This document shows, in pieces, positions 219 to 15,483 of a DNA stretch of 15,483 nt. The position numbers were made by a program, and so were the translations under genes. Under the pieces are notes generated by a model. That model saw only the letters and a program-made list of their open reading frames with translations. It did no database searches and had not been told where the DNA came from. Position 1 is the stretch's first letter. The number at the start of each line of letters is the position of its first letter. The stretch comes from Acidobacteriota bacterium (GTDB lineage Bacteria; Acidobacteriota; UBA6911; JACQSX01), in NCBI GenBank assembly GCA_036507075.1, contig DASXQR010000006.1, positions 1 to 15,483 of the forward strand, given 5' to 3'.

Positions 219-377
219 CACCGCAAAGAGCGCTAAGAATAGCGCAAAGGACGGGGGCTGCAACTTGAAGTATGAAGGCACCACGCCAACGTCTGACGCA
301 ACTCTATGACCTTCATACTTCAAGTTGCAGCCCCCGTCCTTTGCGCTATCTTGGCGTTCTTGGCGTTCTTTGCGGTT
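219..377. repeat. Palindromic intergenic element A (REP/MITE-like)
   Basis: Perfect 40-bp inverted repeat 239-278 / 310-349 with a 31-nt loop. Outer arms are 9-nt units (ACCGCAAAGAGCGCTAAG ... CTTGGCGTTCTTGGCGTTCTTTGCGGT). Confidence 0.93.
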
Positions 378-399
378 AAATTGTTTTGGATGATCCGAG

Positions 400-1362
400 T
401 TAGTAGTACTTCCGCAAATCCATTCCTTTGTAAAGCCCAGCCACCTGGTCGCCATAGCCGTTGAACATCAGGGTCTTGCGTTTGAAGAATTCTCCCAGGC
501 GGCGTTCCGATGCCTGGCTCCAGCGCGGATGATCGACTTCAGGATTCACGTTGGAATAAAAACCGTATTCCCGGGGAGTTGCAAGATTCCAAGTGGTGGG
601 CGGCTCCTTTTCCACAAATCGAATTTTCACCAGTGATTTGATGCTCTTGAAACCGTACTTCCAGGGGACGACTATTCTGACGGGAGCTCCGTTCTGATTG
701 GGCAAAGTCTCTCCGTACATGCCGACACAAAGAAGGGCCAGCGGATGCATGGCCTCGTCCAGACGCAACCCTTCCACGTAAGGAAAAGGAATACCTGCAT
801 AGCGCGCCTGCGGCATCTGTTTTGAGTCGAAATAGGTCTGAAAGGCGACGTATCTGGCCTTGGAATTCGGTTCGACCTGTTTGATCAAATGGCTCAGTGA
901 GTACCCGATCCACGGCACAACAATCGACCAAGCCTCGACGCAGCGGTGGCGATAAACGCGCTCCTCCAGAGGCGCGAGCTTCAAGATGGAATCCATGTCG
1001 TAGGTTTTCGGCTTATTAACAAGGCCTTCGACGGAAACGCTCCACGGAGAGGTCTTGAAGTTCTTAGCCTTCTCAGACGGATCTTCTTTGCCCGTGCCGA
1101 ATTCGTAGTAGTTGTTGTAAGTGGAAACTTTGTCGAATGGCGTCTGCTTTTCGTCGGTGCTGAACTGACCACGGGAGGAGACGTTGAGCTTGGTTCCGGC
1201 CAGGACCGAAATCTCCGGGGAAATGATCTTTACCATTTCACGAGCCGCCACCAACCCGGCGCCCGCACAACCTGCATCCTTAAGGAATTCTCGCCTGTTT
1301 ACGTAGACACTCTTAGGAGTAACTTCCGAATAAGCGACATTGTCTGGTTTTCTAATCAGCAT
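400..1362 (-). CDS. msrP: MsrP (YedY) periplasmic molybdopterin protein-methionine-sulfoxide reductase catalytic subunit
   Basis: Tat motif NRREFLK; motifs YNNYYEFG, HRCVEAWS (Mo-ligating Cys), NGAPVRIVVPWKYGFKSIK, NPEVDHPRWSQA; GAGAGG SD before the ATG. Confidence 0.97.
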   Translation of the reverse strand: MLIRKPDNVAYSEVTPKSVYVNRREFLKDAGCAGAGLVAAREMVKIISPEISVLAGTKLNVSSRGQFSTDEKQTPFDKVSTYNNYYEFGTGKEDPSEKAKNFKTSPWSVSVEGLVNKPKTYDMDSILKLAPLEERVYRHRCVEAWSIVVPWIGYSLSHLIKQVEPNSKARYVAFQTYFDSKQMPQARYAGIPFPYVEGLRLDEAMHPLALLCVGMYGETLPNQNGAPVRIVVPWKYGFKSIKSLVKIRFVEKEPPTTWNLATPREYGFYSNVNPEVDHPRWSQASERRLGEFFKRKTLMFNGYGDQVAGLYKGMDLRKYY

Positions 1363-1399
1363 ACATACCTCTCATTACTTGAGCGCCGCCATACCGTGG

Positions 1400-1572
1400 G
1401 TAAGAATTATTTCACCACAAAGACACAAAGTACACAAAGTCAGACGAGGAGCGGGCAGAGTCCGGTCACTTCTCAAAGTGAACTGTGGCGTCGTCTTCTT
1501 TGGTGACCGGGCTCTGCCTGCTCCTCGTCCCGCTTTGTGTCCTTTGTGTCTTTGTGGTGAAATAATTCTTAC
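1400..1572. repeat. Palindromic intergenic element B
   Basis: About 70-bp imperfect inverted repeat 1400-1469 / 1503-1572 (outer 31 bp perfect) with a 33-nt loop. Contains CACCACAAAGACACAAAG units. Confidence 0.95.
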
Positions 1573-1577
1573 TCCCG

Positions 1578-2609
1578 ATGAAAAAAGCTGAGCTGAAGAT
1601 TGGACTGCTGGGACTGGGCCGGCTGGGAAGAATCTACGCGGGCCAACTGGCGCGGCAGATCGCGGGGGCGCGCCTGGTCGCCGTTGCCGATCCGCTGCCG
1701 GATCGGGCAAAACAGATCGCGGAAGAATGGGGAGTGGAAAAATCCGGCAGCGATCCCCTGGGCCTGATCGACGATCCGCAGGTGGATGCGGTAGTGATCG
1801 CATCGCCCACTCACACGCATAAAGAGCTGGTGATCGCGGCAGCACGGCGAAACAAAAAGATTTTCTGCGAGAAGCCGCTCTCTCTTTCGCTGCGCGAAGC
1901 GATTGAGATAAAGGAGGCAGTGGATCACAGCGGGGCGTTTTTTCAGATGGGCCTGATGCGCCGCTTCGATCGGGGCTACGCAGCGGCAAAAAAGAGAATC
2001 GAGCAGGGCGTGATCGGAAGACCCCTGGTATTCAAGGCCAGCTCGCGCGATCCCTTCCTGCCCGCCCTCGAGTATTTGGATCCAAAGACCAGCGGCGGCA
2101 TTTTCATCGATATGGGCATTCACGATTTTGACCTGGCGCTCTGGCTCATCGGCAGGGTCCGGACGGTCACCTCCATTGGCGGCGTGCTGGCGTTTCCGCA
2201 GGTGGAGGAAATGGGTGATATCGACAATGCCATCGTAACGCTGATTTTTGAAGAGGGCCAGCTGGGCGTGGTCGATTTGAGCCGCAGCGGTCTTTACGGC
2301 TACGACATCTCAGCCGACATTCTGGGAAGCGCCGGCACGCTGCGCGTAGGTTATCTGCGTGAAACACCGGTTCTGGTGATGACTAAAGACGGGGTCGCCC
2401 ATGATGTCGTGCCTTATTTTCCGGAGCGTTTTGGCCAGGCTTACCGTGATCAATTGCAGAATTTCGTCGATAACGTCCGCGCCGGCCGCCCCGCCCCCGT
2501 AACGCTTGCAGACGGCATCGAAGCTCTGCGCGTGAGCGTGGCCGCCACAGAATCCTTTCGGACCGGCCGGCCCGTGGAGATCGCGGCAATATCCGAGCCG
2601 CGCGCGTAA
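1578..2609 (+). CDS. Gfo/Idh/MocA family NAD(P)-dependent oxidoreductase (inositol 2-dehydrogenase-like)
   Basis: Rossmann GLGRLG, CEKPL, MRRFD and GGIFIDMGIHDFD motifs; 343 aa. Confidence 0.92.
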   Translation: MKKAELKIGLLGLGRLGRIYAGQLARQIAGARLVAVADPLPDRAKQIAEEWGVEKSGSDPLGLIDDPQVDAVVIASPTHTHKELVIAAARRNKKIFCEKPLSLSLREAIEIKEAVDHSGAFFQMGLMRRFDRGYAAAKKRIEQGVIGRPLVFKASSRDPFLPALEYLDPKTSGGIFIDMGIHDFDLALWLIGRVRTVTSIGGVLAFPQVEEMGDIDNAIVTLIFEEGQLGVVDLSRSGLYGYDISADILGSAGTLRVGYLRETPVLVMTKDGVAHDVVPYFPERFGQAYRDQLQNFVDNVRAGRPAPVTLADGIEALRVSVAATESFRTGRPVEIAAISEPRA

Positions 2610-2818
2610 GCAAGCGGATTCTCCGGAGGGATAGAGGGATGGAGAGATGGAGAGATGGAGGGATGGAGGGAATGAGGGATGGAGGGAGTGAGGGAAAGAC
2701 AGTGAGTTCTGTACGGGCTTTGGCCAGCGCTCCAAAAACCCTCCCTCTTTCCGTCCCTCATTCCCTCCATCCCTCTGTCCCTCCGGAGGGTCCGCTTGCT
2801 TACGCGTGCGGTTCGGAT
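2591..2818. repeat. Composite palindromic element C (REP-like outer arms plus octamer tandem-repeat inner arms)
   Basis: Outer arms ATCCGAGCCGCGCGCGTAAGCAAGCGG (2591-2617) and the near-complement at 2792-2818. Inner 9 x GAGGGATG-like units (2626-2697) face about 5.5 complementary units (2739-2783). Overlaps the stop codon at 2607-2609. Confidence 0.93.
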
Positions 2819-2844
2819 TTCGGCGGGGATATCCGAGAGGTGTA

Positions 2845-5031
2845 ATGCTTAGATCGATAAGGACGGCCATTATTGTCTGCATTGCCCTTCTGCTTGCATC
2901 ACCCGCCGCCAGCGCAGCTCTGCCCGCAGATGGTGAAAGGCCGGTGATGCGTGCGCTGCGCGCCAGCGGTCCGATCGTCATCGATGGTGATTTGAATGAA
3001 CCGGACTGGCAGCGGGTCGAACCAGCTTCCGGCTTCATCCAGAAGATTCCGCGCACCGGGGATCCGGCCACCGAACAAACCGAAGTCAGGATCCTTTACG
3101 ACGACAACAATCTCTATCTGGGAGTCTACTGCCTGGATTCGGCCGGCTCGCGCGGGATCGTCGTCAACGACATTTCGAAAGATTTCTTCACTCTGGACAG
3201 CGACGGATTCCAGGTGGTGCTGGATACTTTCCACGACAAACGGAATTGTTTTCTCTTCGGAACCAATCCGAAGGGAGGAAAGTTTGACATGCAGATCGGG
3301 GCCGACGGCGCCGCCGGTAATACAGACTGGGACGGCATCTGGTACGTAAAGACCCGTGTTGACGAGCGCGGCTGGCAGATCGAAATGGCCATCCCGTTCA
3401 AGACACTCCGCTTTCATGAGGCCGAAGAGCAGATCTGGGGCATCAATTTTGAAAGGCGGGTGCGGCGTAAGTTCGAGGATTCATACTGGGCGGCGCTTCA
3501 GCCCCCGTATCGCGTGAGCCGCGTATCGCTTGCCGGCACGCTGCAGGGCCTCCGTGGCATAAAGCAGCCCCGCAACCTCTATGTGAAACCTTATCTGTCG
3601 GCGCCGCTGGGCCGCAAGGAAAATGACGATGTGGATTTCAATCCTGACGCCGGGTTGGACCTGAAATACGGCGTCAGTTCGCAGATGACATTCGATGCCA
3701 CTCTGAACACCGATTTTTCTCAGGTCGAGGCCGATGACGCGCAGATAAACCTGACGCGCTTCAGCCTGTTCTTTCCTGAAAAACGCGACTTCTTCCTGGA
3801 AAACGCCGGAACATTCATCTGGGGAAGGCCGAAGCGACGCCCCATGTTTGGACCGGATCGCAGCCGGCGGCTCGACCTGATTCCATTTTTCAGCCGCCGC
3901 ATCGGGCTGACCGACGATGGAGAGCTGGTCCCCATCCGCGGCGGGGCGCGGCTGACCGGGCGCGCCGGTCCGTACAACCTTGGACTGCTTTCCATGCAGA
4001 CCGGCAGGTTCGAATCGCTGCCGGAAACGAATTTCTCCGTCGTGCGGCTGCGCCGGGATCTCTCCCGGTATTCGGACGCAGGCGGAATCTTCATCAATAA
4101 ATATGAAGACGGCGGCCGATTCAATCGCACCTATGGGGCGGACACGAATCTTCGCTTCTTCCAGTATCTCGACGTCACTTCTTATCTGCTGAAGACGGAT
4201 TCGCCCGGCAAGCACGGGCGCGATCAGGCCGGGGACCTTGAAGTTTCATGGCGTGACAGCCTTTTTGATGTGCGGGCGGGACATCTCTGGATCGGGGAAA
4301 ACTTCAATCCGGAAGTGGGATTTGCTCCACGGCGCGGCATTCGCAAGACTTCCGGAGAATTCAACCTCACGCCGCGCCCCGGAGAGCGAATGGCGGCGGT
4401 GCGGGAATTTCAACCGACTGTGGAATTTGACTACATCACCGATCCGGAGGGGCGCCTGGAGACCCGGCGCCTGGAAACGCGTTTTGGCGTGCTGTTCTCC
4501 AACAGCAGCTTTGTGCTGTTCGGGCGCGAGGCAAACTTCGAGCGGCTGGATGAGCCTTTTGCAATCCGCAAGAACCAGAAAATACCGGTGGGCGATTACC
4601 GGTTTGATCAGTACTCGGCCTATTACCAGAGCGACAGAAGCCGCATTCTAAGCGCCATATTGACCGTTTCCACTGGAGGATTTTATGACGGTGACCGCGA
4701 TTCTTTGGGCGGCACTCTGGTGGTGCAGCCGGACTATCATTTTCTGGCCCGCTTTTCGTGGAATCACGACGACGTGCGGCTGCCGACTGGAAATTTCAAA
4801 ACGAATCTCCTATCGAGCCGGCTGAATTACTCGTTTACAACGAACCTGTTTCTCAGCGCCCTGATCCAGTACAACAGCGACGATCACGCCGTCACCAGCA
4901 ACATTCGCCTCAATTTTATTTACAGGCCGCTGAGTAATTTCTTTCTCGTTTATAACGAACGCCGCAGCAGCACCGGCATAGTCACCGAACGCGCGCTGAT
5001 TGCAAAGCTGACGCGGATTTTTGCATTTTGA
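2845..5031 (+). CDS. DUF5916-type protein with N-terminal CBM9-like domain; probable outer-membrane beta-barrel
   Basis: ATG 2845 with GAGAGG SD; signal peptide; IDGDLNEPDW and EMAIPFKTLRF (CBM9-like); NTDFSQVEAD and LFFPEKRDFFLE (DUF5916-like); alternating beta-strand pattern and C-terminal Phe. Confidence 0.85.
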   Translation: MLRSIRTAIIVCIALLLASPAASAALPADGERPVMRALRASGPIVIDGDLNEPDWQRVEPASGFIQKIPRTGDPATEQTEVRILYDDNNLYLGVYCLDSAGSRGIVVNDISKDFFTLDSDGFQVVLDTFHDKRNCFLFGTNPKGGKFDMQIGADGAAGNTDWDGIWYVKTRVDERGWQIEMAIPFKTLRFHEAEEQIWGINFERRVRRKFEDSYWAALQPPYRVSRVSLAGTLQGLRGIKQPRNLYVKPYLSAPLGRKENDDVDFNPDAGLDLKYGVSSQMTFDATLNTDFSQVEADDAQINLTRFSLFFPEKRDFFLENAGTFIWGRPKRRPMFGPDRSRRLDLIPFFSRRIGLTDDGELVPIRGGARLTGRAGPYNLGLLSMQTGRFESLPETNFSVVRLRRDLSRYSDAGGIFINKYEDGGRFNRTYGADTNLRFFQYLDVTSYLLKTDSPGKHGRDQAGDLEVSWRDSLFDVRAGHLWIGENFNPEVGFAPRRGIRKTSGEFNLTPRPGERMAAVREFQPTVEFDYITDPEGRLETRRLETRFGVLFSNSSFVLFGREANFERLDEPFAIRKNQKIPVGDYRFDQYSAYYQSDRSRILSAILTVSTGGFYDGDRDSLGGTLVVQPDYHFLARFSWNHDDVRLPTGNFKTNLLSSRLNYSFTTNLFLSALIQYNSDDHAVTSNIRLNFIYRPLSNFFLVYNERRSSTGIVTERALIAKLTRIFAF

Positions 5032-5096
5032 ATCTCACCACAAAGACACAAAGTGCACAAAGTTCTTCGTGGTCTTTGTGTCTTTGTGGTGAGATT
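5031..5096. repeat. Minimal palindromic element D
   Basis: Perfect 23-bp inverted repeat AATCTCACCACAAAGACACAAAG (5031-5053) / 5074-5096. Same unit sequence as elements B and F. Confidence 0.93.
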
Positions 5097-5107
5097 GACA
5101 AATTTTA

Positions 5108-5860
5108 ATGACCGAATTCCTGCTGATCTCCGCTGCCGGATTTGCCGCCGGGTTTGTCAATGCCGTCGCGGGCGGCGGGACGCTGATCACATTCCCTGCC
5201 CTGCTCTTTGGGGGCAGGAGCGCGGTGCTCGCCAACGCCACCAGCACGGTAGCCATCTGGCCCGGATCCTTGTCGAGCGTGTGGGCCTACCGCCGGCAGA
5301 TCCGAGATCGTCGCCGCGAGGCGTTCGTGCTGGCTGTTCCCTCCGTAATCGGAGGCCTGATCGGCTCGGTGCTGCTGATCTACACGCCCGAGAAAGCCTT
5401 CCGCGTCATTGTTCCTTACCTTATTCTGCTTGCCTGCGGGCTTCTTATTTTCCAGGGACGCATCGGCCGCTGGGTGGCCAGGCATATGGGACATGGCGCG
5501 GCACACGTCTCTGCTGTTCACTGGTTAGTGCAATTTTTGATTTCCATTTACGGCGGGTATTTTGGCGCGGGAATCGGAATCTTAATGCTTGCGGCCATGG
5601 CTATTTTTCTTCCCGAAGATTTGCAGTCGGCCAACGCGCTCAAGGTGTTCTTTGGAATGCTGATCAACGGCATGGCGATGCTTTACTTTGTTGTCATCGG
5701 AGCGGCCGATCTTCGCGCTGCCGGCGTGATGGCGCTGGCTTCCCTGCTTGGCGGTTACCTGGGCGCGCACACCGCGCAGCGGCTTTCACCGGCGCTGCTG
5801 CGCGCCGTCGTGGTCGCGTTCGGTCTGATCGTCGCCGTGCATCTGTTCCGCACGAACTAA
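5108..5860 (+). CDS. TauE/SafE (TSUP) family membrane transporter
   Basis: GFVNAVAGGGTLITFPAL, ANAT, YGGYFGAGIGIL and ANALK motifs; 250 aa, multi-TM. Confidence 0.93.
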   Translation: MTEFLLISAAGFAAGFVNAVAGGGTLITFPALLFGGRSAVLANATSTVAIWPGSLSSVWAYRRQIRDRRREAFVLAVPSVIGGLIGSVLLIYTPEKAFRVIVPYLILLACGLLIFQGRIGRWVARHMGHGAAHVSAVHWLVQFLISIYGGYFGAGIGILMLAAMAIFLPEDLQSANALKVFFGMLINGMAMLYFVVIGAADLRAAGVMALASLLGGYLGAHTAQRLSPALLRAVVVAFGLIVAVHLFRTN

Positions 5861-5862
5861 AT

Positions 5863-5944
5863 TCGAAAGTCGAGGGTCGAACGTTGAAAGTCGAAGGTCG
5901 AAAGTCGAAGGAGGTCCTGACTTTGGACTTTCTGACTTTCCGAC
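5863..5944. repeat. Heptamer tandem repeat with degenerate inverted arm (element E)
   Basis: 7 x TCGAAAG-like units at 5863-5911, then GACTTT-containing complementary units at 5919-5944. Confidence 0.85.
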
Positions 5945-6069
5945 AAGATGCCACAAAGACCGTTGACCAGTGACTCATGACGGAAGACAAAACTTTCTTC
6001 CCCCTCACCGAAAAAAATGAGATATTACGCAAACCCTTTCAAACACATCGGTCTGCAAAAGGAGATCGT

Positions 6070-6597
6070 ATGAAAAAGTGCGCGTTTTTAATCATCCTGT
6101 CCGCCCTGACTGTCTGTTTTGTATACGCTCCTCCACCTGCTGCCACACACGTGGTGGTCAGGGCTGATCAGATAAAGTGGGGGTCCGCACCCCCGACTCT
6201 GCCGGCCGGGGCTCAAATGACGGTGCTATCCGGTGACCCGTCAAAACCGGGACTTTTCACCATCAGATTGAAAGCACCTGACGGATTCAAAGTCGCTCCC
6301 CATTGGCATCCGACGGCCGAAAACCTGACGGTTCTTCAGGGGAGATTTGGCATTGGAACCGGCGATAAGTTCGATCCCAGGCCGGAAAACGAACTGACCA
6401 CCGGCAGTTTCACCATGATGCCGGCCAAAATGCATCACTTTGCCTGGACAAGAGGGGAGACCGTGGTGCAGGTCAGCGCCATGGGCCCGTTCAAACTCAT
6501 CTATGTAAATCCGGCCGACAATCCCAATAAGCCACCCGTCAAGCCGGCAAAGGCGGCAACCGAGAAACCGAAACCCAAGGCAAAAACGGGCTACTGA
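6070..6597 (+). CDS. Secreted cupin-domain protein (DUF4437-like) with Lys/Pro/Ala-rich tail
   Basis: ATG 6070 with AAGGAG SD; signal peptide MKKCAFLIILSAL; cupin motifs PHWHPTAE and MPAKMHHFA; GDPSKPG. Confidence 0.85.
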   Translation: MKKCAFLIILSALTVCFVYAPPPAATHVVVRADQIKWGSAPPTLPAGAQMTVLSGDPSKPGLFTIRLKAPDGFKVAPHWHPTAENLTVLQGRFGIGTGDKFDPRPENELTTGSFTMMPAKMHHFAWTRGETVVQVSAMGPFKLIYVNPADNPNKPPVKPAKAATEKPKPKAKTGY

Positions 6598-6607
6598 TTT
6601 GAATGAA

Positions 6608-6659
6608 AAGCTTGGTGCCTTGGTGGTTCAATGCATTCAACCGCCAGGACACCGGGCTT
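6608..6659. repeat. Short imperfect hairpin of the same repeat family with arms in reversed order
   Basis: AAGCTTGGTGCCTTGGTGGTT (6608-6628) pairs with AACCGCCAGGACACCGGGCTT (6639-6659), using 4 G-T pairs and 1 C-A mismatch. Confidence 0.75.
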
Positions 6660-6679
6660 GCAACAGGTAGGAGGCGTAA

Positions 6680-7576
6680 ATGAAAACTCGAGTACCGCAT
6701 CTACTCTGGGTCCTACCGATCCTTCTCTTGGTTTTCCATCTTCCCGCACCTTCCGCTGCAGCGGCGGAAAAGATCAACATCATTGCCATCGGCGCGCATC
6801 CGGACGACTGTGACAACCGTGCCGGAGGCGTGGCCGCCAAGTGGGCGGCGCTCGGGCATCGCGTTCGATTCGTCGCGGTTACAAACGGAGACGCGGGACA
6901 TCAGAAGGAGGGCGGGTCTGCTCTGGCGCGCCGCCGCGAAGCGGAGGCCAAGGAAGCAGCACGCCGAATCGGGATCGAATACGTGGTCCTGAACAACCAC
7001 GATGGAAAACTTCTGCCCACGTTGGAAGTGCGCGAGCAGGTGATTCGCCAGATCCGCCAGGCCAACGCAGACCTGGTGCTGGCGCCGCGGCCAAATGATT
7101 ACCATCCCGATCACCGCTACACCGGAGTGCTGGTTCAGGATGCAGCCTACATGGTGACGGTGCCCAATATTTGTCCCGATACTCCGGCGCTGCGAAAGAA
7201 TCCGGTCTTCATGTACTTTCAGGACGGCTTCCAGAGGCCCAATCCCTTTTCTCCCGATGTGGCCGTTTCGCTGGACGATGTGATCGAAAAGAAATACGAC
7301 ATGCTCGACGCGCATGTCTCGCAGATGTACGAGTGGCTCGCCTGGCACGCAGGACTTCTCGACCAGGTCCCCAAAGACGCCAAGGCGCGCAGGGAGTGGC
7401 TCAAAACGCAGCGCCGCTACGAACCAACTCCGGCCGTGCGCCAGTCGTTGATCAAGTGGTACGGCCCGGACCGGGGCGGCAATATCAAATATGCCGAAGC
7501 CTTTGAGGTCTGTGAATACGGCACCCGGCCCACGACGGAAGACATTCGCCGCCTGTTTCCGTTCTTCCCGCGCTGA
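6680..7576 (+). CDS. PIG-L/LmbE family deacetylase with signal peptide
   Basis: GAHPDD, TNGDAG, RRxxEA, DYHPDH and YAEAF motifs; AGGAGG SD; hydrophobic N-terminus ending in AAAA. Confidence 0.92.
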   Translation: MKTRVPHLLWVLPILLLVFHLPAPSAAAAEKINIIAIGAHPDDCDNRAGGVAAKWAALGHRVRFVAVTNGDAGHQKEGGSALARRREAEAKEAARRIGIEYVVLNNHDGKLLPTLEVREQVIRQIRQANADLVLAPRPNDYHPDHRYTGVLVQDAAYMVTVPNICPDTPALRKNPVFMYFQDGFQRPNPFSPDVAVSLDDVIEKKYDMLDAHVSQMYEWLAWHAGLLDQVPKDAKARREWLKTQRRYEPTPAVRQSLIKWYGPDRGGNIKYAEAFEVCEYGTRPTTEDIRRLFPFFPR

Positions 7577-7579
7577 TCC

Positions 7580-7641
7580 GCGTCCATCTGCGGCCCAAAT
7601 TCGCGCCACCGGCGTTCATCTGCGGCCGCGGCTGCGGCCGC
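7580..7641. repeat. Direct repeat plus GC-rich hairpin between convergent genes
   Basis: GCGT(C/T)CATCTGCGGCC at 7580-7595 and 7612-7627. GCGGCCGC at 7622-7629 and 7634-7641 can pair. Confidence 0.6.
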
Positions 7642-7652
7642 GACCCCAATAC

Positions 7653-9965
7653 TTATTTCAGGACCTTCCCGTCCACGGCGATCCGCAGCTCGAACTTGTC
7701 CTCCACACTGGGCACGAAAAATCCGTGCACGACGGCAAGCCAGTTCCCGGCTCTGGGATCCTTGATCGACGTCGCTTCGGGATTGTTCAAAGTAGCGCCA
7801 TCGACATCGAGGTGGCCGTTCGGATCGATCAGGATCAGATCAATATCATTTGACGGATAGGATCCCCAGTCTTGGCGCCAACCGAGCCGAGCGTCAAGCT
7901 TCAACGCGCCCGCGCTGACCTGAAAGGGCACGACCCTGATCTCGCCATCCAGCAGCCTTCCCTGCGAAGTAAATTGAGGGGCCGGATCCGTCACCGAAAA
8001 GATATTGACCGTTGCGCCTACCGAACTGGCATTGGTCCAGTCTCCGTTGACGCTGACACGCATCAGCCCTGTTTCCGGATTGGGCACCACAAAGGTTCCG
8101 CCTTTGGTAAACTCAAATACCCGGTAATCTCCTTCATCGATCGCGGAGGTCTTGGCGCTGTGAACGGTCAGCAGAATGTCATCCCCGAAAAGAGTGTTCT
8201 GGTTTGCGCCCGTGATCAGGTTTGACAGGCTCACAATCACAGCCGTCGTGTTAGGGTGCACGTGATAATAAATCTCCACCCTTTGCCCCGGCAGCAATCC
8301 CTGTATTACTTGAGTGACGTTTCCGTTCAGCGTCGGCACGCCGGCGGCCTGCAGGATGTTGACGTTGACGTTGGTATTGCCGACGCCGGCTGCTCCAAAA
8401 GTGTCCGGCACTCCGCCGGCCTGAAGCAGGGAGAGAGCACCGGCTGCGTTGACGTAGCCGCTGCCTCGATCAAGCGGCCCGGATCCATCTGTAATCAGAC
8501 CGGGTTTGGCGCTGGCGATCAACGCATTCCTAACCTGCCGGGCGGTCGCTCCCGGCGCTGCCTGGCGAAGAACAGCGGCCACTCCGGCGACAGTCGGGCC
8601 ACTGAAGCTGGTGCCGCTGGCCATGTTGACGACGTTTGTGGAAGAGGAGAAGCCCTGACCAAAGCTGCCAAAACCATTTGCCATCACGTCTGGATCTATA
8701 CGGCCGTCGGCGGTCGGACCGCGCGAGCTGAAATACGCCGTTTGTGTTCGATCGGACGGCCTGAACAATTCCCCAATACCAAGGACACCAAAGTTCAGGT
8801 CCCAGAAGACTCTCTCGTGTACGGGTGAAGAGCTCGCGCCGACTGTGAGCGCGTCGAATCCTGTCGCCGGGCTGGCCCCCGTCGTTCCGCTCGGGCCGGC
8901 GTTTCCGGCGCTCACTACCAGGACGATGTCATGCTCGAGGAACGCTCGAGTCAATTTATCTTCCAGGTCATGACCGGCAAAGATCGTGGAGCCGCCAAGA
9001 CTCATGTTGCAGACCTTAATATTGAGCGCGGTGTATTTTCCACTCGCATCCTTGGTTTCAGGCAATCCGCTGTCAAAGTTCTCGCGCAACTGCAAGACCC
9101 GTTCCATGGCCGCGATGACCCGGGAGGTCGGGGCGCCGCCGGCCGGCGGGAAAACCCGCAGAGCGTAAATGCTCGAAAGAGGAGCCGAACCGATCATGGG
9201 CACACGTGTAGACGTAGAATTTGGGACGGTCTCAACGCACGCGTCGCAGTACTTCTTTAGCGATTTAACCAGGAGCCTCGAGTTTGGAAATGTAAATACC
9301 ACATTGGCGGAAATCATTCCTGCGACGAAGGTCCCATGTCCGTCGTTGGCGATGTTACTGAATCCGAGGCCATCGCCCACCAGGTCTTCTCCACCGATCA
9401 CCGAGCCGTCGAGACTGAGATGAGGGCGCCCGGGGCGTATCCCCGAATCGATGACCGCCACCTTCACTCCCTGGCCTGTGAAACCGGCGGCATGGACCGA
9501 ACCGAGATTCAGAGAAGTGTTGTTGATGAGATAAGCGTCCGGGCTGGAATCAGTAATGGCGGCCAGTTCGCCGGCTGACAGGCTTTCAACCTCGGCGCTT
9601 TCCTCGCTGGCCAGAAGCCGGGTTCCGCTCCGCCGGTCGAGGGCCGCTTGCGGCAGGTTAACCATCAAGTCCTTCGAAACGCATCCGGCGGGCAGCAGTG
9701 CGCGAATGGCGCTCATCGCGTCATCGGGAATTTCCGCTGCAATCGCCTCAATGTAGCGAAATTGATGCGTCACCTTGCCACCGCGCTGCTCAATGGCGGT
9801 GACAACTTTGGAATAAGGCTTGGCTGTTCGAATAAGAACCGCGGCGCCCTGAGTGTAGGGGCTCAAAGCGATGACAGACAAGGCATTCAAAAGCGCTTGT
9901 CGCAGCCGCCATTTCCGACGACTGCCACTTGTCGCAGAAACATCAGTACCTCTGGTTTTACCCAT
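7653..9965 (-). CDS. S8 family (subtilisin-like) serine peptidase with prodomain and C-terminal PPC-like beta domains
   Basis: Triad motifs VAVIDSG, HGTFVAG and SGTSFSGPTVAG; oxyanion SAGN; SSRGPTADGRIDPD. Start taken at ATG 9965 (GGGG SD); the ORF track extends to 10034. Confidence 0.93.
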   Translation of the reverse strand: MGKTRGTDVSATSGSRRKWRLRQALLNALSVIALSPYTQGAAVLIRTAKPYSKVVTAIEQRGGKVTHQFRYIEAIAAEIPDDAMSAIRALLPAGCVSKDLMVNLPQAALDRRSGTRLLASEESAEVESLSAGELAAITDSSPDAYLINNTSLNLGSVHAAGFTGQGVKVAVIDSGIRPGRPHLSLDGSVIGGEDLVGDGLGFSNIANDGHGTFVAGMISANVVFTFPNSRLLVKSLKKYCDACVETVPNSTSTRVPMIGSAPLSSIYALRVFPPAGGAPTSRVIAAMERVLQLRENFDSGLPETKDASGKYTALNIKVCNMSLGGSTIFAGHDLEDKLTRAFLEHDIVLVVSAGNAGPSGTTGASPATGFDALTVGASSSPVHERVFWDLNFGVLGIGELFRPSDRTQTAYFSSRGPTADGRIDPDVMANGFGSFGQGFSSSTNVVNMASGTSFSGPTVAGVAAVLRQAAPGATARQVRNALIASAKPGLITDGSGPLDRGSGYVNAAGALSLLQAGGVPDTFGAAGVGNTNVNVNILQAAGVPTLNGNVTQVIQGLLPGQRVEIYYHVHPNTTAVIVSLSNLITGANQNTLFGDDILLTVHSAKTSAIDEGDYRVFEFTKGGTFVVPNPETGLMRVSVNGDWTNASSVGATVNIFSVTDPAPQFTSQGRLLDGEIRVVPFQVSAGALKLDARLGWRQDWGSYPSNDIDLILIDPNGHLDVDGATLNNPEATSIKDPRAGNWLAVVHGFFVPSVEDKFELRIAVDGKVLK

Positions 9966-10152
9966 AAATCCCCCTGAAAATTCAACTGTTTGCGAGACAC
10001 TTCTGTCGACAGCACCAATTGACTGCTGACGCAATCAGTTGTTGGCGATCATTACCGTTTCGGGTGCACGCCCACCGCCAGGCTTGAAGGTGACGACAGT
10101 TGCGAATGCGAATAATTCAAACCTGACCGGAAGATAAAGATCAGTGCAAAAG

Positions 10153-10353
10153 TCAACGGCTGACCGCGAACTCCTCTCTAGGAATAGCAAGCCAGAGAAT
10201 AAGGTAAGGGATTACACCGGGTAGTCCGCCGGGGAGAATGAGGAAGAAAAAACCGAGCCGGACCCAGAAACTTCGGATCTCGTAATACTCTGCGATGCCG
10301 CCGCAGACACCTGCCAGGTAGCGGTTTCGGGCGCTTCTTCTTAGTTTTTTCAT
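10153..10353 (-). CDS. PspC-domain membrane protein
   Basis: MKKLRRSARNRYLAGVCGGIAEYY...VRL...YLILWLAIP is the PspC signature; ATG 10353 with AGGGGTG SD; 66 aa. Confidence 0.92.
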   Translation of the reverse strand: MKKLRRSARNRYLAGVCGGIAEYYEIRSFWVRLGFFFLILPGGLPGVIPYLILWLAIPREEFAVSR

Positions 10354-10374
10354 ATCACCCCTGTCTTCTGTAAC

Positions 10375-10400
10375 TACGCGTCCGGACTCTCTAAAGTTCC
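10375..10400 (-). promoter_or_regulatory. Putative ECF sigma-factor promoter for the PspC-domain gene
   Basis: Minus strand reads GGAAC (10400-10396)-N17-CGTA (10378-10375), ending 21 nt before the ATG. This fits the AAC...CGT ECF consensus. Confidence 0.55.
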
Positions 10401-10493
10401 GGAACCTCACCCGAAAAATTCCACCCTTGTTTAATTATAGCGAAGCCGCAAAGAAGGGGGGCCGACTCAGGTCGAGTTTGTGCTGCCTGTCGA

Positions 10494-10623
10494 GGAAAAC
10501 TTCACCCACAAAGACACAAGTGGGGCAGGCAGAGGCCGGTCATCTGTCCAAAGGCGAACGCGGCGGTTTTGAAGCTGACCGGCCTCTGCCTGCCCCATTT
10601 GTGTCTTTGTGGTGAAGTTTTCC
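10494..10623. repeat. Palindromic intergenic element F (same family as B)
   Basis: About 48-bp inverted repeat 10494-10542 / 10576-10623 (one bulge, one G-T) with a 33-nt loop. Has CACAAAGACACAA units and the inner GCAGGCAGAGGCCGGTCA module. Confidence 0.95.
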
Positions 10624-10638
10624 GTGGCTTCTGATTTT

Positions 10639-11706
10639 TCACACCTTCTCTCTTTCCGGAAACTCCCCCGGCATCACAGACAACTCAATTTTTTCCGGCC
10701 CTCGAATCACAACCAGCGGGGTTCTTGCGCCCACACGCTCATCGCTGAGCAGCTTGTGCAAGTCGTCAATACCTGCCACCGGCTGCCCGGCGAAATTCAC
10801 GATGATATCGCCTGCGGTAATGCCCGTCTTTTGAGCGGGGCTGTCCGGTTCAGTTGAGACCACCATGATGCCGCTTTCGCGCGTCAAACCATGAAAGCGC
10901 ACGATCCGGCGGTGAAGGGGCACGTTTTGTCCCGCCATTCCAATGTAGCTGCGGCGGATCTTGCCGTCCTTGATCAGGCGGCCGGCGACGAACTTGGCCG
11001 TGTTGATCGCGATGGCAAAACAGATGCCCTGCGCGGGAAAAATCACAGCCGTGTTGACTCCAATCACCTCGCCCCGGGAATTAACCAGAGGACCGCCCGA
11101 ATTTCCGGGATTCAGCGCCGCATCGGTCTGGATTACGTCGTCAATTAATCGGCCCGAACCGGTCCTGAGCGAGCGGCCCAGCGCGCTGGTCACTCCGGCT
11201 GTCACGCTGCACTGAAAGCTGTACGGGTTGCCGATCGCTATTACAAGCTGGCCCACCCGGATCTTCTGCGAATCTCCCATCAGCGCGGGAGTCAGCGCCG
11301 GTGCGCTTATTCTCACCACCGCCAGATCGGTGTGTGGATCGTCTCCCACCAGGTCTGCCTGCCAGGATCGCCCGTCCGTCAGAGTCACACGGATCCAGGT
11401 TGCGTTATGGACCACATGACTGTTGGTTAGAATAAATCCGTCCGGGGTGAACACGAACCCCGATCCGCTCCCGCCCCGCTCGCGTTGAGACGGTCGCCGG
11501 CTCGTTTCTCCATCCCGGCCTGCCTGCCGGACCTCGATATTGACGACCGAAGGGCTCACCTTTTCAGCGGCCGAAATAACCGCCTGCGAATACGCGTCCA
11601 GAAGATCGTCATCAAATCCCGCCGGTTGCGTCCCCGCATGCTCCGGCCCCGCGTGCAAAGGCTCATTCGCCGCCAACCTCATTTCGGCACTGCTCCTGCG
11701 CTTCAT
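10639..11706 (-). CDS. HtrA/DegP-like S1C serine protease with single PDZ domain
   Basis: GSGSGF, TNSHVV, DLAVVRI and IQTDAALNPGNSGGPL; C-terminal PDZ (SPAQKTGITAGDII). ATG 11706 has an AAAGGTGG SD; the ORF track starts at 11715. Confidence 0.95.
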   Translation of the reverse strand: MKRRSSAEMRLAANEPLHAGPEHAGTQPAGFDDDLLDAYSQAVISAAEKVSPSVVNIEVRQAGRDGETSRRPSQRERGGSGSGFVFTPDGFILTNSHVVHNATWIRVTLTDGRSWQADLVGDDPHTDLAVVRISAPALTPALMGDSQKIRVGQLVIAIGNPYSFQCSVTAGVTSALGRSLRTGSGRLIDDVIQTDAALNPGNSGGPLVNSRGEVIGVNTAVIFPAQGICFAIAINTAKFVAGRLIKDGKIRRSYIGMAGQNVPLHRRIVRFHGLTRESGIMVVSTEPDSPAQKTGITAGDIIVNFAGQPVAGIDDLHKLLSDERVGARTPLVVIRGPEKIELSVMPGEFPEREKV

Positions 11707-11749
11707 TGAATCCACCTTTCAATTCATTGGTTTGCGGAGTTGCAAAGAG

Positions 11750-11983
11750 TCCACCACAGAGACACGGAGGACACAGAAAGACAGCGAGAGATGGCCAAAA
11801 GTTCCCTGTGCCCCCCTGTACTACTAACCATGAGAATTTTCGCGGCCCGCGCAAATTATTCGGGAGCGGAGAGACGGCCTGCGGGCCGTCTCAGCTTGGC
11901 AGAACACCGCAGAGAGACGGCCCTCAGGCCGTCTCTCCTTGACTTTTGGTTGCGGCTTCGCCGCGCTAAGCCTCTGTGGTGGA
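11750..11983. repeat. Palindromic element G, right arm interrupted by an insert
   Basis: TCCACCACAGAG (11750-11761) pairs with CTCTGTGGTGGA (11972-11983). The rest of the right arm (CTGTGCCCCCCTGT, 11806-11819) lies 150 bp further left. Confidence 0.8.
11820..11969. mobile_element. Putative 150-bp non-autonomous insertion with sub-terminal hairpins, carrying a REP-like doublet
   Basis: Removing it restores the right arm of element G. Hairpins at 11835-11857 and 11952-11964; no terminal IR or target duplication visible; internal inverted 25-mers at 11868-11892 / 11914-11938. Confidence 0.6.
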
Positions 11984-12084
11984 TCTTTTACACGTTCGAC
12001 GGCTCTGCCCACCATGTCCTAATCTGGATTCATAACATCCCGGAACTCATCATGCAAAGCAGGGGGAAATCTGGTGGCGGCCCA

Positions 12085-13818
12085 CTACGGCGGAAAGTTC
12101 ATCTGGCGCAGCAGATCGAGAAAGCGCGGGTGTGAGCGCAGGACGTCAAGCCTTGGGTCTACTCTGGCAAAGGTGAGTCCGGAGGAGCGTTCTTCGTACG
12201 CCTTTGCCAACCACTCGTACGCCTGATCCTTCTCTCCCAGGCCCAGGAAAAGCAGAGCGAAGTCGTACGGCGAGACGTATTTGCTGTTCGACCGGTCCTT
12301 GAGCTGTTTCAATAGCTTCAATACATCGCTCCGCTGCCCCGCCATTCCACAGGCATGTGCAAGTGCCGCCATCGCTCCCACGCCGCGTCCCGCCGGTGAG
12401 ATCCCCTTCTTGAAGGCGGCGATCGCTTTCCCGTAAGCGGCTTTCTGTTCGTATCCCAGTCCCATGAAGTAGTACGCGTGAGCGTAATGCGGGTCGAGCT
12501 CGAGCGTTTTCGCCGCATACTCGATTACCTGTTCGTACTGGCGGGCCAGAAACAAAATCCCGGCCGCGTTCAAGATCACCGAAGGCGCCACGGGGTCAAG
12601 CTCCAGCGCCCGCATCGCCTCAGCGACAGCCTCCTTCGACCGCCCCAGCGCGGCCAGGCAGTTGGCATAATAGTAATGAGCGGTTCCATAACTCGGGTTC
12701 AAGTCAATGGCTCGCTTGAACCCCTTCTCTGCCGCCTCCCAGTTGAATTGATGAAGATTGAGATGTCCCAGCGACGTATGGGCCTCCGCCAGCGTTTCGT
12801 TCAACTGCAACGCTTTGATGGCTGCCGCATTGGCCTGTGCTGCCGCTTCGAGAGGAGGAAGGTAGTTGTAGTCGAGCAGTCGAAGATAACAATCAGCCAG
12901 TCCGGCGTAACTCGCGGCGTACGCCGGGTCGGTTTCTATTGCGTTCTCGAACTGCCCGACGGCCTTTTGGAGCCCTTCCTTTGCTCGCTTGTTCCAGAAG
13001 TAGCGACCTTTGAGATAAGCCTCGTAGGCCTGGGGGTTGACGGGGCGCACATCCGTTATGCACCCACGCTCCGGCGACGTCAGCTTTACCCTGATCTCAC
13101 CGGCTATTGCCTGGGCCACGTCATTCTGTACGGCAAGAATGTCGTCCAGGTTGCGGTCGTAACTCTCGGTCCAGAGGTGAGTCTGATCGCTTACCTGGAT
13201 GAGCTGCGCAGTGATGCGTACCCGCGGGCCGGCGCGCCGCACGCTGCCCTCCAGCACGTAATTGACGCCCAGTTCCCGGCCGATCTGGTCAATGCCCTTG
13301 GCCGTGTGTTTGTATTTCATCGCTGAAGTTCGAGCAATGATCCCCAGCCGCTCGCGATGCAAACGCCCCAGGTGCGTAATCATTTCCTCGGTCAGACCGT
13401 CGCTGAAGTATTCCTGGTCGGGATCGCTGCTCAAGTTCTCAAAAGGGAGCACGGCCAGCATCATCCTGCCCGCGGCGGAAGGCGGCTGTATTGTCGGGGT
13501 TTCTTTGACCGGAGCGACAAACCGATAGCCGCGCTTTGGAATTGTCAGGATGTATTCCTGCCCCTCGACGCCGTCACCCAGAGCCTTCCTCAGGATGGAA
13601 ATCGTGCGGGCAAGACTTCCTTCTTCGACGAATGCATCGGGCCAGACCTTCTTCAGGAGTTCGTTCTTTTCGACCAACCGGCCGGCGTTCTGCACCAGCA
13701 CCAGCAGGGTATCGACAACCTTCGGAGGGAGCATCACGATCTCGCCCTCGCGCAACAGCAAACGCCCGGCGATGTCCAGGCGAAATCGACCAAACTGATA
13801 GAACTGTCCGCTGGCCAT
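12085..13818 (-). CDS. Winged helix-turn-helix (OmpR/CadC-type) transcriptional regulator with TolB-like domain and TPR repeats
   Basis: N-terminal FGRFRLD, VWPDAFVEEGSL..ISILRKALGD, TIPKRGYRF; AVLPFENLSSDPDQEYFSDGLTEE; LEGSVRR; multiple TPRs; C-terminal DPRLDVLRSHPRF. Confidence 0.92.
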   Translation of the reverse strand: MASGQFYQFGRFRLDIAGRLLLREGEIVMLPPKVVDTLLVLVQNAGRLVEKNELLKKVWPDAFVEEGSLARTISILRKALGDGVEGQEYILTIPKRGYRFVAPVKETPTIQPPSAAGRMMLAVLPFENLSSDPDQEYFSDGLTEEMITHLGRLHRERLGIIARTSAMKYKHTAKGIDQIGRELGVNYVLEGSVRRAGPRVRITAQLIQVSDQTHLWTESYDRNLDDILAVQNDVAQAIAGEIRVKLTSPERGCITDVRPVNPQAYEAYLKGRYFWNKRAKEGLQKAVGQFENAIETDPAYAASYAGLADCYLRLLDYNYLPPLEAAAQANAAAIKALQLNETLAEAHTSLGHLNLHQFNWEAAEKGFKRAIDLNPSYGTAHYYYANCLAALGRSKEAVAEAMRALELDPVAPSVILNAAGILFLARQYEQVIEYAAKTLELDPHYAHAYYFMGLGYEQKAAYGKAIAAFKKGISPAGRGVGAMAALAHACGMAGQRSDVLKLLKQLKDRSNSKYVSPYDFALLFLGLGEKDQAYEWLAKAYEERSSGLTFARVDPRLDVLRSHPRFLDLLRQMNFPP

Positions 13819-13919
13819 CAAAGTAGTTTGGGAAGGAATTCGTCAGAAGAATATCAACTTTCGCGAAGGACTTCTACGAGCTGTGGTCCCTAATATTTGC
13901 CGGAAGGAGGAAATCCAAC

Positions 13920-15224
13920 ATGAGATCCACGCATAGCAGCGATCGAATCTTGAAAGTCGCAACTTTAATATTATTGTCGGCGCTTATGGTTGCGGGGCTG
14001 GCACGTTTGTTCCGAAGTGCGGTAACGGCCTCGCCCGTAAGCTTTCATTCCAAAGTGGGGGTTTTCGATCCGCAGGATGCCGAGAAATATTTATTCGTCT
14101 GGGCGGGCGATCAGGCCCGCACCGCGGCTGATTTCCTGGCCGTGGTCAATTTCGATGAAGGTTCGCCGCAGTACGGTAAGGTGTTAGGCGTCAGTCCGGT
14201 TCCAGGTTCCGGCAACAGCGGCAATGAGCCTCACCATGTGGGCCTCTCCAGTGATGGGCGCGTGCTGGCCTGCGGCGGACTGCTGAGCGTGCTGAAGGGG
14301 CAGAAGGAGATATTTTTCTACGACGTCTCCAATCCCTCCTTCCCGCAATTCATTTCTTCTGCGGACCCTCCGCAGTCGGCAATTACGGATGAATTCTACC
14401 CGCTGGCCGATGGGGGATTCCTGGTGACCATGATGGGAGGGCCGCAGGGACATCATCCTGGAAGAATCGCCGAGTTTGATAAGAATCTGCAACTGGTTGC
14501 AGAGTATCCAGAGGTTCCCCCGCAGGATGGGTTCAATCCTCACGGGATCTCAGTCAGACCGGAGATCAATCTGATGGTCACCAGCGATTTCGTTTGTCCT
14601 TCGACCACGCTGCACGCCGTGCCCGGCAGCTTGGATCTTCGCGGGAGTATTCGCGTGTGGAATTTCAAAAAGAGAAAGATTGTTCAGACCATCAAGCTTC
14701 CCACGCCGGCCGGCACCATCGACGTGAAGCTGATCCCGGGAGACAAAAAAGGCCGCGCTTACACGGCGGGAATGGCGGATGATCGGCTTTACTTGATCGA
14801 CCCGGAAGCAGGCACCGCCAAAGCCGTGTTCGATTTTTCTCTGATTGCAAAAGGAGGATTCCCTCAGTTGATGCGCACTACCCGGGATGGTCAGAGGCTG
14901 TTTGTTTCGATGAATGCCGCCGGCAGAGTAGCCATGTTTGACACGTCAAGACCCGCAAGGCCGCGACTGCTGAGTGTTCTCGATCTGGGGCCGAATTCCG
15001 GACCGCACTACATCGCACTGACCGAGGACGAAAAGCGCCTGGTGATTACGGACTACTTCCTGAATGAGGACGACTTTGGAAAAGTTCACGCCGAGGGAGA
15101 CCATCGTGTCCACGTCGCCAGGGTCTCAGCCGAAAAACTGGAGCTGGATCCGAAATTCCAGCTCGACTTCAACACCGCATTCAACGGCAGACCGACGCGC
15201 CCTCACGGGGTAGCTTTCAAGTGA
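13920..15224 (+). CDS. Selenium-binding protein (SBP56)-like exported beta-propeller protein
   Basis: AGGAGG SD; N-terminal hydrophobic segment; DFLAVV, YGKV, NEPHH, NPHG, GPHY and RPHG motifs; repeating beta-blade pattern. Confidence 0.75.
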   Translation: MRSTHSSDRILKVATLILLSALMVAGLARLFRSAVTASPVSFHSKVGVFDPQDAEKYLFVWAGDQARTAADFLAVVNFDEGSPQYGKVLGVSPVPGSGNSGNEPHHVGLSSDGRVLACGGLLSVLKGQKEIFFYDVSNPSFPQFISSADPPQSAITDEFYPLADGGFLVTMMGGPQGHHPGRIAEFDKNLQLVAEYPEVPPQDGFNPHGISVRPEINLMVTSDFVCPSTTLHAVPGSLDLRGSIRVWNFKKRKIVQTIKLPTPAGTIDVKLIPGDKKGRAYTAGMADDRLYLIDPEAGTAKAVFDFSLIAKGGFPQLMRTTRDGQRLFVSMNAAGRVAMFDTSRPARPRLLSVLDLGPNSGPHYIALTEDEKRLVITDYFLNEDDFGKVHAEGDHRVHVARVSAEKLELDPKFQLDFNTAFNGRPTRPHGVAFK

Positions 15225-15283
15225 ACAGTGATAAGGGGCATGAGTTACCAGTTGTTTAGCCGCATCGATTCAGCGGAGACACG

Positions 15284-15305
15284 GCGCGGCTGGGCCGTAA
15301 CCAAA
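15284..15305 (+). mobile_element. Second copy of the hairpin terminus GCGCGGC-NNN-GCCGYAACCAAA
   Basis: 18/22 identical to the reverse complement of 11945-11966. Differences are the 3-nt loop and one stem C>T. Confidence 0.6.
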
Positions 15306-15315
15306 GAGCCGAATC

Positions 15316-15439
15316 GCCACGAAGGCACGAAGATCTAAACTGATCTTACAGTGCTACTTTTAGGAACGTGATAGTGGATTTCGTAATGTGTCACTTCAGG
15401 ATAACCACGGAAACCTTCGTGTCTTCGTGCCTTCGTGGC
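15316..15439. repeat. Palindromic element H
   Basis: Perfect 18-bp IR GCCACGAAGGCACGAAGA (15316-15333) / 15422-15439 made of octamer units, enclosing an 88-nt AT-richer interior. Confidence 0.88.
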
Positions 15440-15483
15440 AGCTCGTGGACATGGATGGCTTTGAAAAACTTTGGCAAAAAAAA

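Follow-up and report, generated by a model that had tools for sequence, protein, structure and literature searches.

Competence regulons are run by a dedicated regulator (ComX/SigH, Sxy-CRP-S), and REP-associated tyrosine transposases (RAYTs), named after repetitive extragenic palindromes (REPs), are thought to be domesticated. The described systems closest to the repeats reported here are the REP doublets known as REPINs, the intervening sequences (IVSs) of 23S rRNA genes that carry an S23p open reading frame (ORF), the tandem heptamers of Xanthomonas and Nostoc, and the competence regulons. The RAREFAN paper calls the benefit that maintains REPINs and RAYTs unclear (bioRxiv 10.1101/2022.05.22.493013). 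No function has been assigned to the widespread GxxExxY and S23p four-helix-bundle families. We analysed a window of 15,483 nucleotides, which is the entire contig C6 (DASXQR010000006.1) of the Acidobacteriota assembly GCA_036507075.1 (hereafter G000; 6.1 Mb, 233 contigs, 96% complete), sequence of which occurs in soil metagenome runs. Its genes encode ordinary enzymes, transporters and proteases, and between them stand nine hairpins (E1 to E9) with arms of tandem 7–9-nt words. The same arms enclose protein genes in other parts of the genome, and these cassettes and the DNA-uptake genes have one promoter-like motif in common, which is new here. With moderate confidence, we read the hairpins as REPIN-like, gene-less derivatives of such cassettes, whose competence-expressed cargo proteins would act on single-stranded DNA (ssDNA) hairpins with the help of host recombination.

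Gene-bearing cassettes and their arm words

The first-pass annotation of the window had stated that similar repeats flank GxxExxY and four-helix-bundle genes, and the statement was right, as the same arms enclose these genes in G000 and in other genomes. G000 contains six GxxExxY loci and eight TIGR02436 matches at seven four-helix-bundle loci, most of them with arms, and the four-helix-bundle cargo belongs to PF05635, the 23S IVS protein family. In a set of cargo loci from class relatives and other phyla, which left out loci with flanks shorter than 120 nt and included some duplicates or kin, arm pairs scoring at least 12 were found at 82 of 105 GxxExxY loci (mirror control, 3; one, L143, is an N-run artefact) and at 24 of 32 four-helix-bundle loci (mirror control, 1). 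The GxxExxY arms consist of 8–9-nt words and the four-helix-bundle arms of 7-mers. CRC-type words, matched by an expression (CACAAAG/CGCCAAG/CACAGAG/CACGGAT) that was composed after the words had been seen, occurred at 81 of the 82 armed GxxExxY loci versus none of the 24 armed four-helix-bundle loci. Because these words track GxxExxY loci, E1, E2, E4 and E6 to E9 are classed as GxxExxY-type. The elements of the window are as follows.

219..377: E1, CGCAAAG/CGCCAAG tandem arms (GxxExxY-type words) enclosing a 40-bp perfect inner stem; family of 23–32 loci
1400..1572: E2, CACAAAG arms with a GGCAGAG-CCGGTCA inner stem; family of 14–15 loci
2591..2818: E3, composite, an outer REP-like palindrome (about 87 loci) enclosing GAGGGAT 8-mer arms
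5031..5096: E4, minimal CACAAAG hairpin beginning at the DUF5916 stop codon; arms common to about 160 loci
5863..5944: E5, GTCGAAA heptamer arms; the word also flanks the four-helix-bundle gene in L282 (genome G001)
6608..6659: E6, reversed-polarity TTGGTG/CACCAAG hairpin, degenerate
10494..10623: E7, CACAAAG arms with a GGGGCAGGCAGAGGCCGGTCA inner stem; family of 20–25 loci
11750..11983: E8, CACAGAG hairpin whose right arm is interrupted by an insert
11819..11970, plus strand: E8 insert, a 152-nt second element in the pyrimidine arm, at a fixed site
15316..15439: E9, CACGAAG arms enclosing a conserved non-palindromic interior; family of 7 loci

The GAGGGAT word of E3 falls outside the GxxExxY word class and was not seen at any cargo gene among the loci examined, and E6 is of the same type as the hairpin 3' of the GxxExxY gene on contig C37. 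None of the nine elements encloses an ORF. Deletion intermediates were found on other contigs, namely a truncated GxxExxY gene within CACAAAG arms (C152), a four-helix-bundle stub within arms (C82) and a nested hairpin that holds the promoter motif only (C192). Many cassettes are broken or truncated, they occur patchily, in 29 of 61 class genomes, and the GxxExxY proteins of G000 fall in separate clades with other phyla. The arm word follows the protein clade across phyla, with 4 changes versus 10.7 in shuffled data on a 55-row tree whose bootstrap was not settled and from which loci with stops, with fewer than 100 aa or with an ambiguous word, plus two-thirds of the GTDB loci, had been left out. 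The TTGGTCA arm of a cassette on contig C225 matches the cyanobacterial STRR2 repeat.

After three reference sequences with stops were dropped, residues E41, E91, K93 and Q105 of GxxExxY were invariant and D81 was near-invariant. The protein matches PDDEXK_3, with the E...D...ExK motif, QxxxY and the alpha/beta core present, and its fold was predicted confidently (pLDDT 93). Weak fold matches of the model were SSO0001, a Cas4 ssDNA nuclease, and lambda exonuclease (E 0.03–0.06); no sequence relative was found in the PDB. By motif and modelled fold, GxxExxY is probably a member of the PD-(D/E)XK nuclease family with predicted nuclease activity.

RAYT transposases could instead be the sole mover, with the tandem-arm hairpins and their cargo riding on REPINs and the GxxExxY and four-helix-bundle genes as passengers. 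G000 has at least 12 Y1 (RAYT-type) loci behind the same motif as the cassettes, and in E3 and E8, as also around the RAYTs on contigs C85 and C122, tandem arms and REP-type repeats occur nested, as such an origin would have it. The RAYT genes are, however, directly flanked by their own non-tandem REPs rather than by tandem arms, the arm word class tracks cargo family and clade, and E1, E2, E4, E7 and E9 are without a separate REP, so that we find RAYTs as the sole mover distinctly unlikely.

A motif common to DNA-uptake genes and cassettes

The shared motif is of the TTTCGCAGATTT-N-GTTATGT type and is a putative promoter, with two boxes 17 nt apart and a position often only a few bases from the start codon; it may be read by a competence regulator. 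The motif matrix gave 60 sites of at least 22 bits in G000 versus 0 in the reversed genome. Thirteen host sites precede ssb, comEA, recA, comM, a pilin gene (GspH/ComGD-like), radC, an ERCC4 nuclease gene, recQ, comEC, comF, recG, pcrA and dprA, where the genes 3' of the motif were identified by scanning 33 downstream ORFs (examples are C110:8679 for dprA, C23:18268 for comM, C100:20615 for comEC and C111:1528 for recA). By our own tally, some 27 of the 60 sites are followed by a RAYT, GxxExxY or four-helix-bundle gene or by what remains of one, and the others stand before unassigned ORFs or gene-less repeats. In G000 the motif was not present before the two uvrA genes, uvrB, recN or radA, which points to an uptake-type rather than an SOS-type motif; lexA and ruvB were not located by the motif search and hence lie outside the scored set. 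A matrix built from the 13 host sites only scored at least 22 before 5 of 6 GxxExxY, 6 of 7 four-helix-bundle and 10 of 12 Y1 loci (with a 900-nt upstream window for two long RAYTs), the background being 47 of 4,680 genes at 15 or more.

The motif variant differs by host family in the class relatives, and the cassette copy varies along with it. At least 14 bits were reached by 14 of the 32 class GxxExxY loci, five of the 32 being from G000 (reversed control, maximum 12.9). Against family matrices built from 2–5 sites, 12 of these 14 best fit the comM/dprA matrix of their own family and one was without an own matrix. Among the four-helix-bundle loci of same-family relatives, 4 of 6 also have the motif upstream.

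Of the 85 upstream flanks of cassettes that gave a match, 6 had comM or comEA as the immediate neighbour in the same orientation, as against 1 of 74 downstream flanks with a match; cassettes also follow dprA in genomes G001 and G003. Other neighbours were as common (top counts 5, 4 and 4) and conserved genes are matched more easily; the adjacency is no more than suggestive. Several RAYT loci of the relatives directly follow comM, and RAYT-like genes directly 3' of comM were recorded in G059 (L364, L367, L371 and L373), G021 (L369) and G044 (L365). In G059, three of the four RAYT-like copies have additional 3' fragments of comM next to them, which suggests duplication or an integration targeted to comM.

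This neighbourhood would also suit a domesticated competence accessory, in which hairpins of incoming ssDNA are recognized by the cassette proteins as marks of self, or as obstacles that they clear, or in which the proteins cut foreign DNA, and the repeats pile up as a by-product, like uptake sequences. A motif re-tuned to each host family agrees with that idea, as does the defence role that Bertels 2017 proposes for RAYTs (PMC5581495), and the idea is compatible with descent of the hairpins from cassettes. The broken or truncated cassettes, their patchy distribution and the clades shared with other phyla nevertheless fit selfish horizontal spread, the other neighbours are as frequent as comM and comEA, and a selfish element would likewise profit from capturing a competence promoter. 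We consider domestication of this kind unlikely.

Several genes begin within about 5 nt of the second motif box, which suggests leaderless transcripts. ORFs of 113–472 aa without a Pfam/NCBIfam match behind the motif (L178, L179, L180, L189, L190, L200 and L207, on contigs C48, C97, C28, C192 and C83) are candidate new competence genes or cargo, and L206 (DUF7674) is preceded by the motif and by a four-helix-bundle-type arm. An operon on contig C17 (L254:347-4082) encodes an extracytoplasmic function (ECF) sigma factor, a zf-HC2/TPR anti-sigma factor and a long TPR protein whose CHAT-like tail was recognized by eye. One motif copy lies at the sigma/anti-sigma junction, at the 3' end of the sigma gene, and a second precedes a 79-aa ORF that runs divergently and lies upstream of a coaD-like gene. 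This sigma factor was not assigned to the motif, for which an adjacent copy is not enough. A degenerate motif noticed by eye in the E8 insert was also dropped, as its spacing is off by two and the best score in the window is −5.1.

Families, dispersal and structure of the hairpins

All nine elements proved real, with complementary arms, and all sit between protein genes and none in an rRNA gene. They occupy 9 of the 12 gaps of the window, in line with the initial impression of nearly every gap; the three gaps without one are 7577–7652, about 9960–10152 and 13822–13919, in the first of which, where the flanking genes converge, there is no more than a small GCGGCCGC-based palindrome outside the tandem-arm class. 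Folded as ssDNA, the regions of E4 (5025–5103), E5 (5855–5950), E7 (10490–10628) and E9 (15308–15445) gave z scores of −8.5, −2.9, −13.7 and −5.3, respectively, and that of E6 (6600–6665) was the weakest of the five folded, at −2.2 with 9 of 200 shuffles as good.

The elements are not unique to the window. A genome-wide search yielded 1,250 intergenic tandem-seeded inverted repeats versus 58 mirror repeats found by the identical algorithm as a control. A tandem stem was present in 1,310 of the 3,094 gaps of 40–1,500 nt in G000 (co-directional, 806 of 1,911; convergent, 291 of 558; divergent, 213 of 625), which are upper counts, as the gene caller was our own crude one and some RAYT REPs also pass the tandem filter. 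The left arm was purine-rich in 633 of the inverted repeats and pyrimidine-rich in 136. The first-pass annotation had given all elements one polarity, which applies to most of those in the window but is overstated as a universal rule: E6 is reversed, with the TTGGTG arm on the left, and so are 112 of the 496 CRC-word elements of G000.

Interiors described as varying from locus to locus turned out to be common to whole-element families. The E1, E2, E7 and E9 families have 23, 14, 20 and 7 aligned loci with common non-palindromic interiors, and for 541 of 843 elements a full-length partner exists at another locus, in most cases with 60–90% identity. The co-evolution of the two arms at each locus, also proposed from the window, was clear only in the E1 family, with 36 symmetric derived arm changes versus a shuffled mean of 14.4 and maximum of 26 in 300 shuffles. 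It was marginal in the E2 family (25 versus 13.3, maximum 31) and the E7 family (19 versus 12.1, maximum 21) and absent in the E9 family (2 versus 4.0). Slippage and template switching without a dedicated system would give arms with differing unit numbers and the symmetric changes of E1 and E7, and such a local origin may explain arm upkeep, but not dispersal. It is largely refuted by the interiors common to unlinked loci, and the same words surround cargo genes across phyla; we regard it as extremely improbable.

Individual elements bear on their neighbours in different ways. E2 nearly fills the divergent gap between the molybdopterin-oxidoreductase and Gfo/Idh/MocA genes, and in 1363–1577 it leaves no obvious space, and no sigma-70 match, for either divergent promoter. 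The last codons and the stop of the Gfo/Idh/MocA gene (2578–2609) come from E3, and the homologue on the metagenome contig L035 ends earlier (RPVEV*). The window copy of E7 is shorter than its family by about 18 nt on both arms. The E8 insert shows no visible target duplication; its type has 23 copies, counted by the left end, 21 of which follow YYYYG. It contains a GAGACGG REP doublet (11868–11938) of a type found flanking RAYT remnants. Its family is a young (90–99% identical) non-coding mini-element of 109–205 nt, the length being set by REP content, and it inserts into hairpins of the GxxExxY type at one fixed point of their pyrimidine arm.

A programmed mRNA structure, the other possibility raised in the first-pass annotation, was not supported. 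Isolated transition mismatches in strict stems of co-directional gaps showed no G·U bias toward the transcribed strand (transcript G·U 191 versus A·C 183), an earlier test with loose gapped stems gave an equal null, and mismatch types within stems were mixed as expected by chance (68 stems mixed, 46 concordant). Family copies occur in either orientation relative to flanking genes. These observations, together with the occupied divergent gaps, favour a strand-neutral DNA hairpin. Terminator-like sites were not in excess (19 versus 18.5), the elements had no Rfam match, and a sigma-70 scan was at background. An RNA-level system for the processing of polycistronic mRNA, with the stems acting as terminators or as IVS-like substrates of RNase III, could draw on the long stems abutting stop codons at E4 and E5, on the peak of occupancy in convergent gaps and on the kinship of the four-helix-bundle family with the 23S IVS protein, the Coxiella IVS being cut by RNase III (PMC4990558). 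Given the absence of a strand signature, such a system appears highly improbable, although incidental RNA effects of the hairpins are likely.

An empty orthologous site was found for E3. Among 18 candidates, one metagenome contig, L035 (82–83% nt identity), is without E3 and has a gap of about 20 nt at the Gfo/Idh/MocA-DUF5916 junction; it is too divergent at this site to judge target-site duplication, and after DUF5916 it has a different repeat array, not E4. At DUF5916 homologues of other genera (L016 in G005 and L017 in G015), the boundary hairpins use other words, CACGAAT and CACGGAT. One metagenome run has a contig that spans 2830–10596 with 5 differences, but the run may be the source of the assembly and the match is therefore not independent support.

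Proposed origin and comparison with known systems

The suggestion that the elements are non-autonomous derivatives is borne out by the ORF-bearing versions, the truncated and promoter-only intermediates, the dispersed families and the one empty junction; its second half, spread by a trans-acting enzyme, is what we infer from them. The parent cassettes would be inverted tandem-word arms enclosing a GxxExxY nuclease-family or four-helix-bundle gene. As the cassettes share their upstream motif with DNA-uptake genes, we predict that natural competence is when the cargo proteins are produced, at which time incoming or RecA/ComM-handled ssDNA may fold into hairpins that they would copy or cut. GxxExxY would be an active PD-(D/E)XK nuclease recognizing its own arm word, and the four-helix-bundle protein, which is without a known catalytic role, would require a host or RAYT partner. 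Cutting and host recombination could then bring copies to new gene junctions or overwrite empty alleles with them. Stacked junctions would follow from the insertion of REPs and of the hairpin-targeting mini-element into hairpins already present. In this scheme, expression, catalysis, recognition and movement are all predictions; a precedent is the E. coli RAYT yafM, up on competence induction in Sinha 2009 as cited in PMC5581495.

Several results weigh against descent from mobile, competence-expressed cassettes. Co-inheritance of arms and genes is explicable by cis linkage alone, without recognition. GxxExxY or four-helix-bundle sequence occurs in only 8 of 3,094 gaps and the motif is kept in only 17 of 1,310 tandem-stem gaps, so the descent of most copies is read from their arm words. 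Foldseek gave no match at E<=0.001 for the GxxExxY model. The top near-identical pairs are contig-end duplicates or RAYT-type REP arrays rather than fresh insertions, and with most partners at 60–90% identity the population appears old and dispersed, with no fresh insertion caught. The single empty site in L035 fits gain or loss alike. No element-skipping joint was seen in contigs of four runs, a comparison that covered 2830–15483 only (15 of 81 joint rows), at low cover in three of the four and with E1–E3 outside the covered part. The window itself is without the motif, and no sigma factor or activator was identified, none of the 44 sigma-70 family matches being tied to it. Among the class GxxExxY loci, 18 of 32 scored below 14 bits and one passing locus best fits the matrix of another family, and the motif stands at only 2 of 13 RAYT loci in five relatives. 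The G000 matrix matches 0 of 80 other-phylum loci. In a cross-phylum promoter test that compared 14 of 15 genomes, a motif was not detectable in any of the 14 even at the com genes of the hosts, so that the positive control failed and the test is uninformative outside the class.

A wider proposal, which we put forward tentatively as a less than even prospect, is that GxxExxY, S23p-type four-helix-bundle and RAYT genes have converged in sitting within hairpin arms, capturing a competence promoter and spreading the hairpin via transforming ssDNA. If true, the GxxExxY and four-helix-bundle cassettes would be a transposase-free, transformation-driven mobile class, which would explain tandem-heptamer repeats across phyla and the timing of RAYTs. 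The lineage-matched motif would give the three families a time of action, DNA uptake, and, as the likely substrate, ssDNA hairpins in which the word is defined. It is also the first competence-regulon motif offered for this uncultured soil lineage, in a genome where such repeats can occupy some four in ten of the long gaps. The link between hairpin cassettes and competence was not found in the literature searched, where most subscription papers lay outside coverage and only neighbouring systems were found.

Of these, REPIN-RAYT systems (PMC3116915; bioRxiv 10.1101/2022.05.22.493013; PMC5581495) are alike in having hundreds of intergenic non-autonomous DNA hairpins with long inverted arms. Copying involves the doublet as a whole, its ends being conserved and its spacer variable, the copies span a wide range of divergence, the same repeats flank a small protein gene, and yafM is the reported case of competence induction. 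The arms here, however, are tandem 7–9-nt words and not nested REP palindromes, with only the outer part of E3 and the inner part of E8 REP-like, and the flanked gene encodes a putative PD-(D/E)XK protein or a four-helix bundle rather than an HUH Y1 transposase. A cognate RAYT flanked by the same repeat was found only for the GAGACGG doublet inside E8. The cargo tree here also mixes phyla, and no excision was seen in the contigs of the four runs.

The 23S IVS with its S23p ORF, as described for Coxiella (PMC4990558), shares a terminal inverted-repeat stem enclosing a PF05635 ORF, here in cassettes outside the window. The present elements differ in that they lie between genes, have tandem arms and for the most part contain no gene; a second cargo family and a competence-type motif come in addition, and a signature of the RNA strand is absent. 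Like the cyanobacterial STRR repeats, the GGGAATC and GGGGA(C/T)T heptamers of Xanthomonas and Nostoc are intergenic tandem heptamers, often in inverted pairs. In the sections of PMC4692102 at hand, the Xanthomonas and Nostoc repeats are treated as G-quadruplex or simple sequence repeat features and not tied to mobile elements, a cargo gene or a promoter, and the word families here are many more. Finally, the G000 motif resembles a competence regulon in that one motif precedes comEA, comEC, comF, comM, dprA, radC, recA, ssb and a pilin gene; it differs from the ComX/SigH and Sxy-CRP-S regulons in the motif itself and in having close to half of its sites at repeat-flanked cassettes or their remnants.

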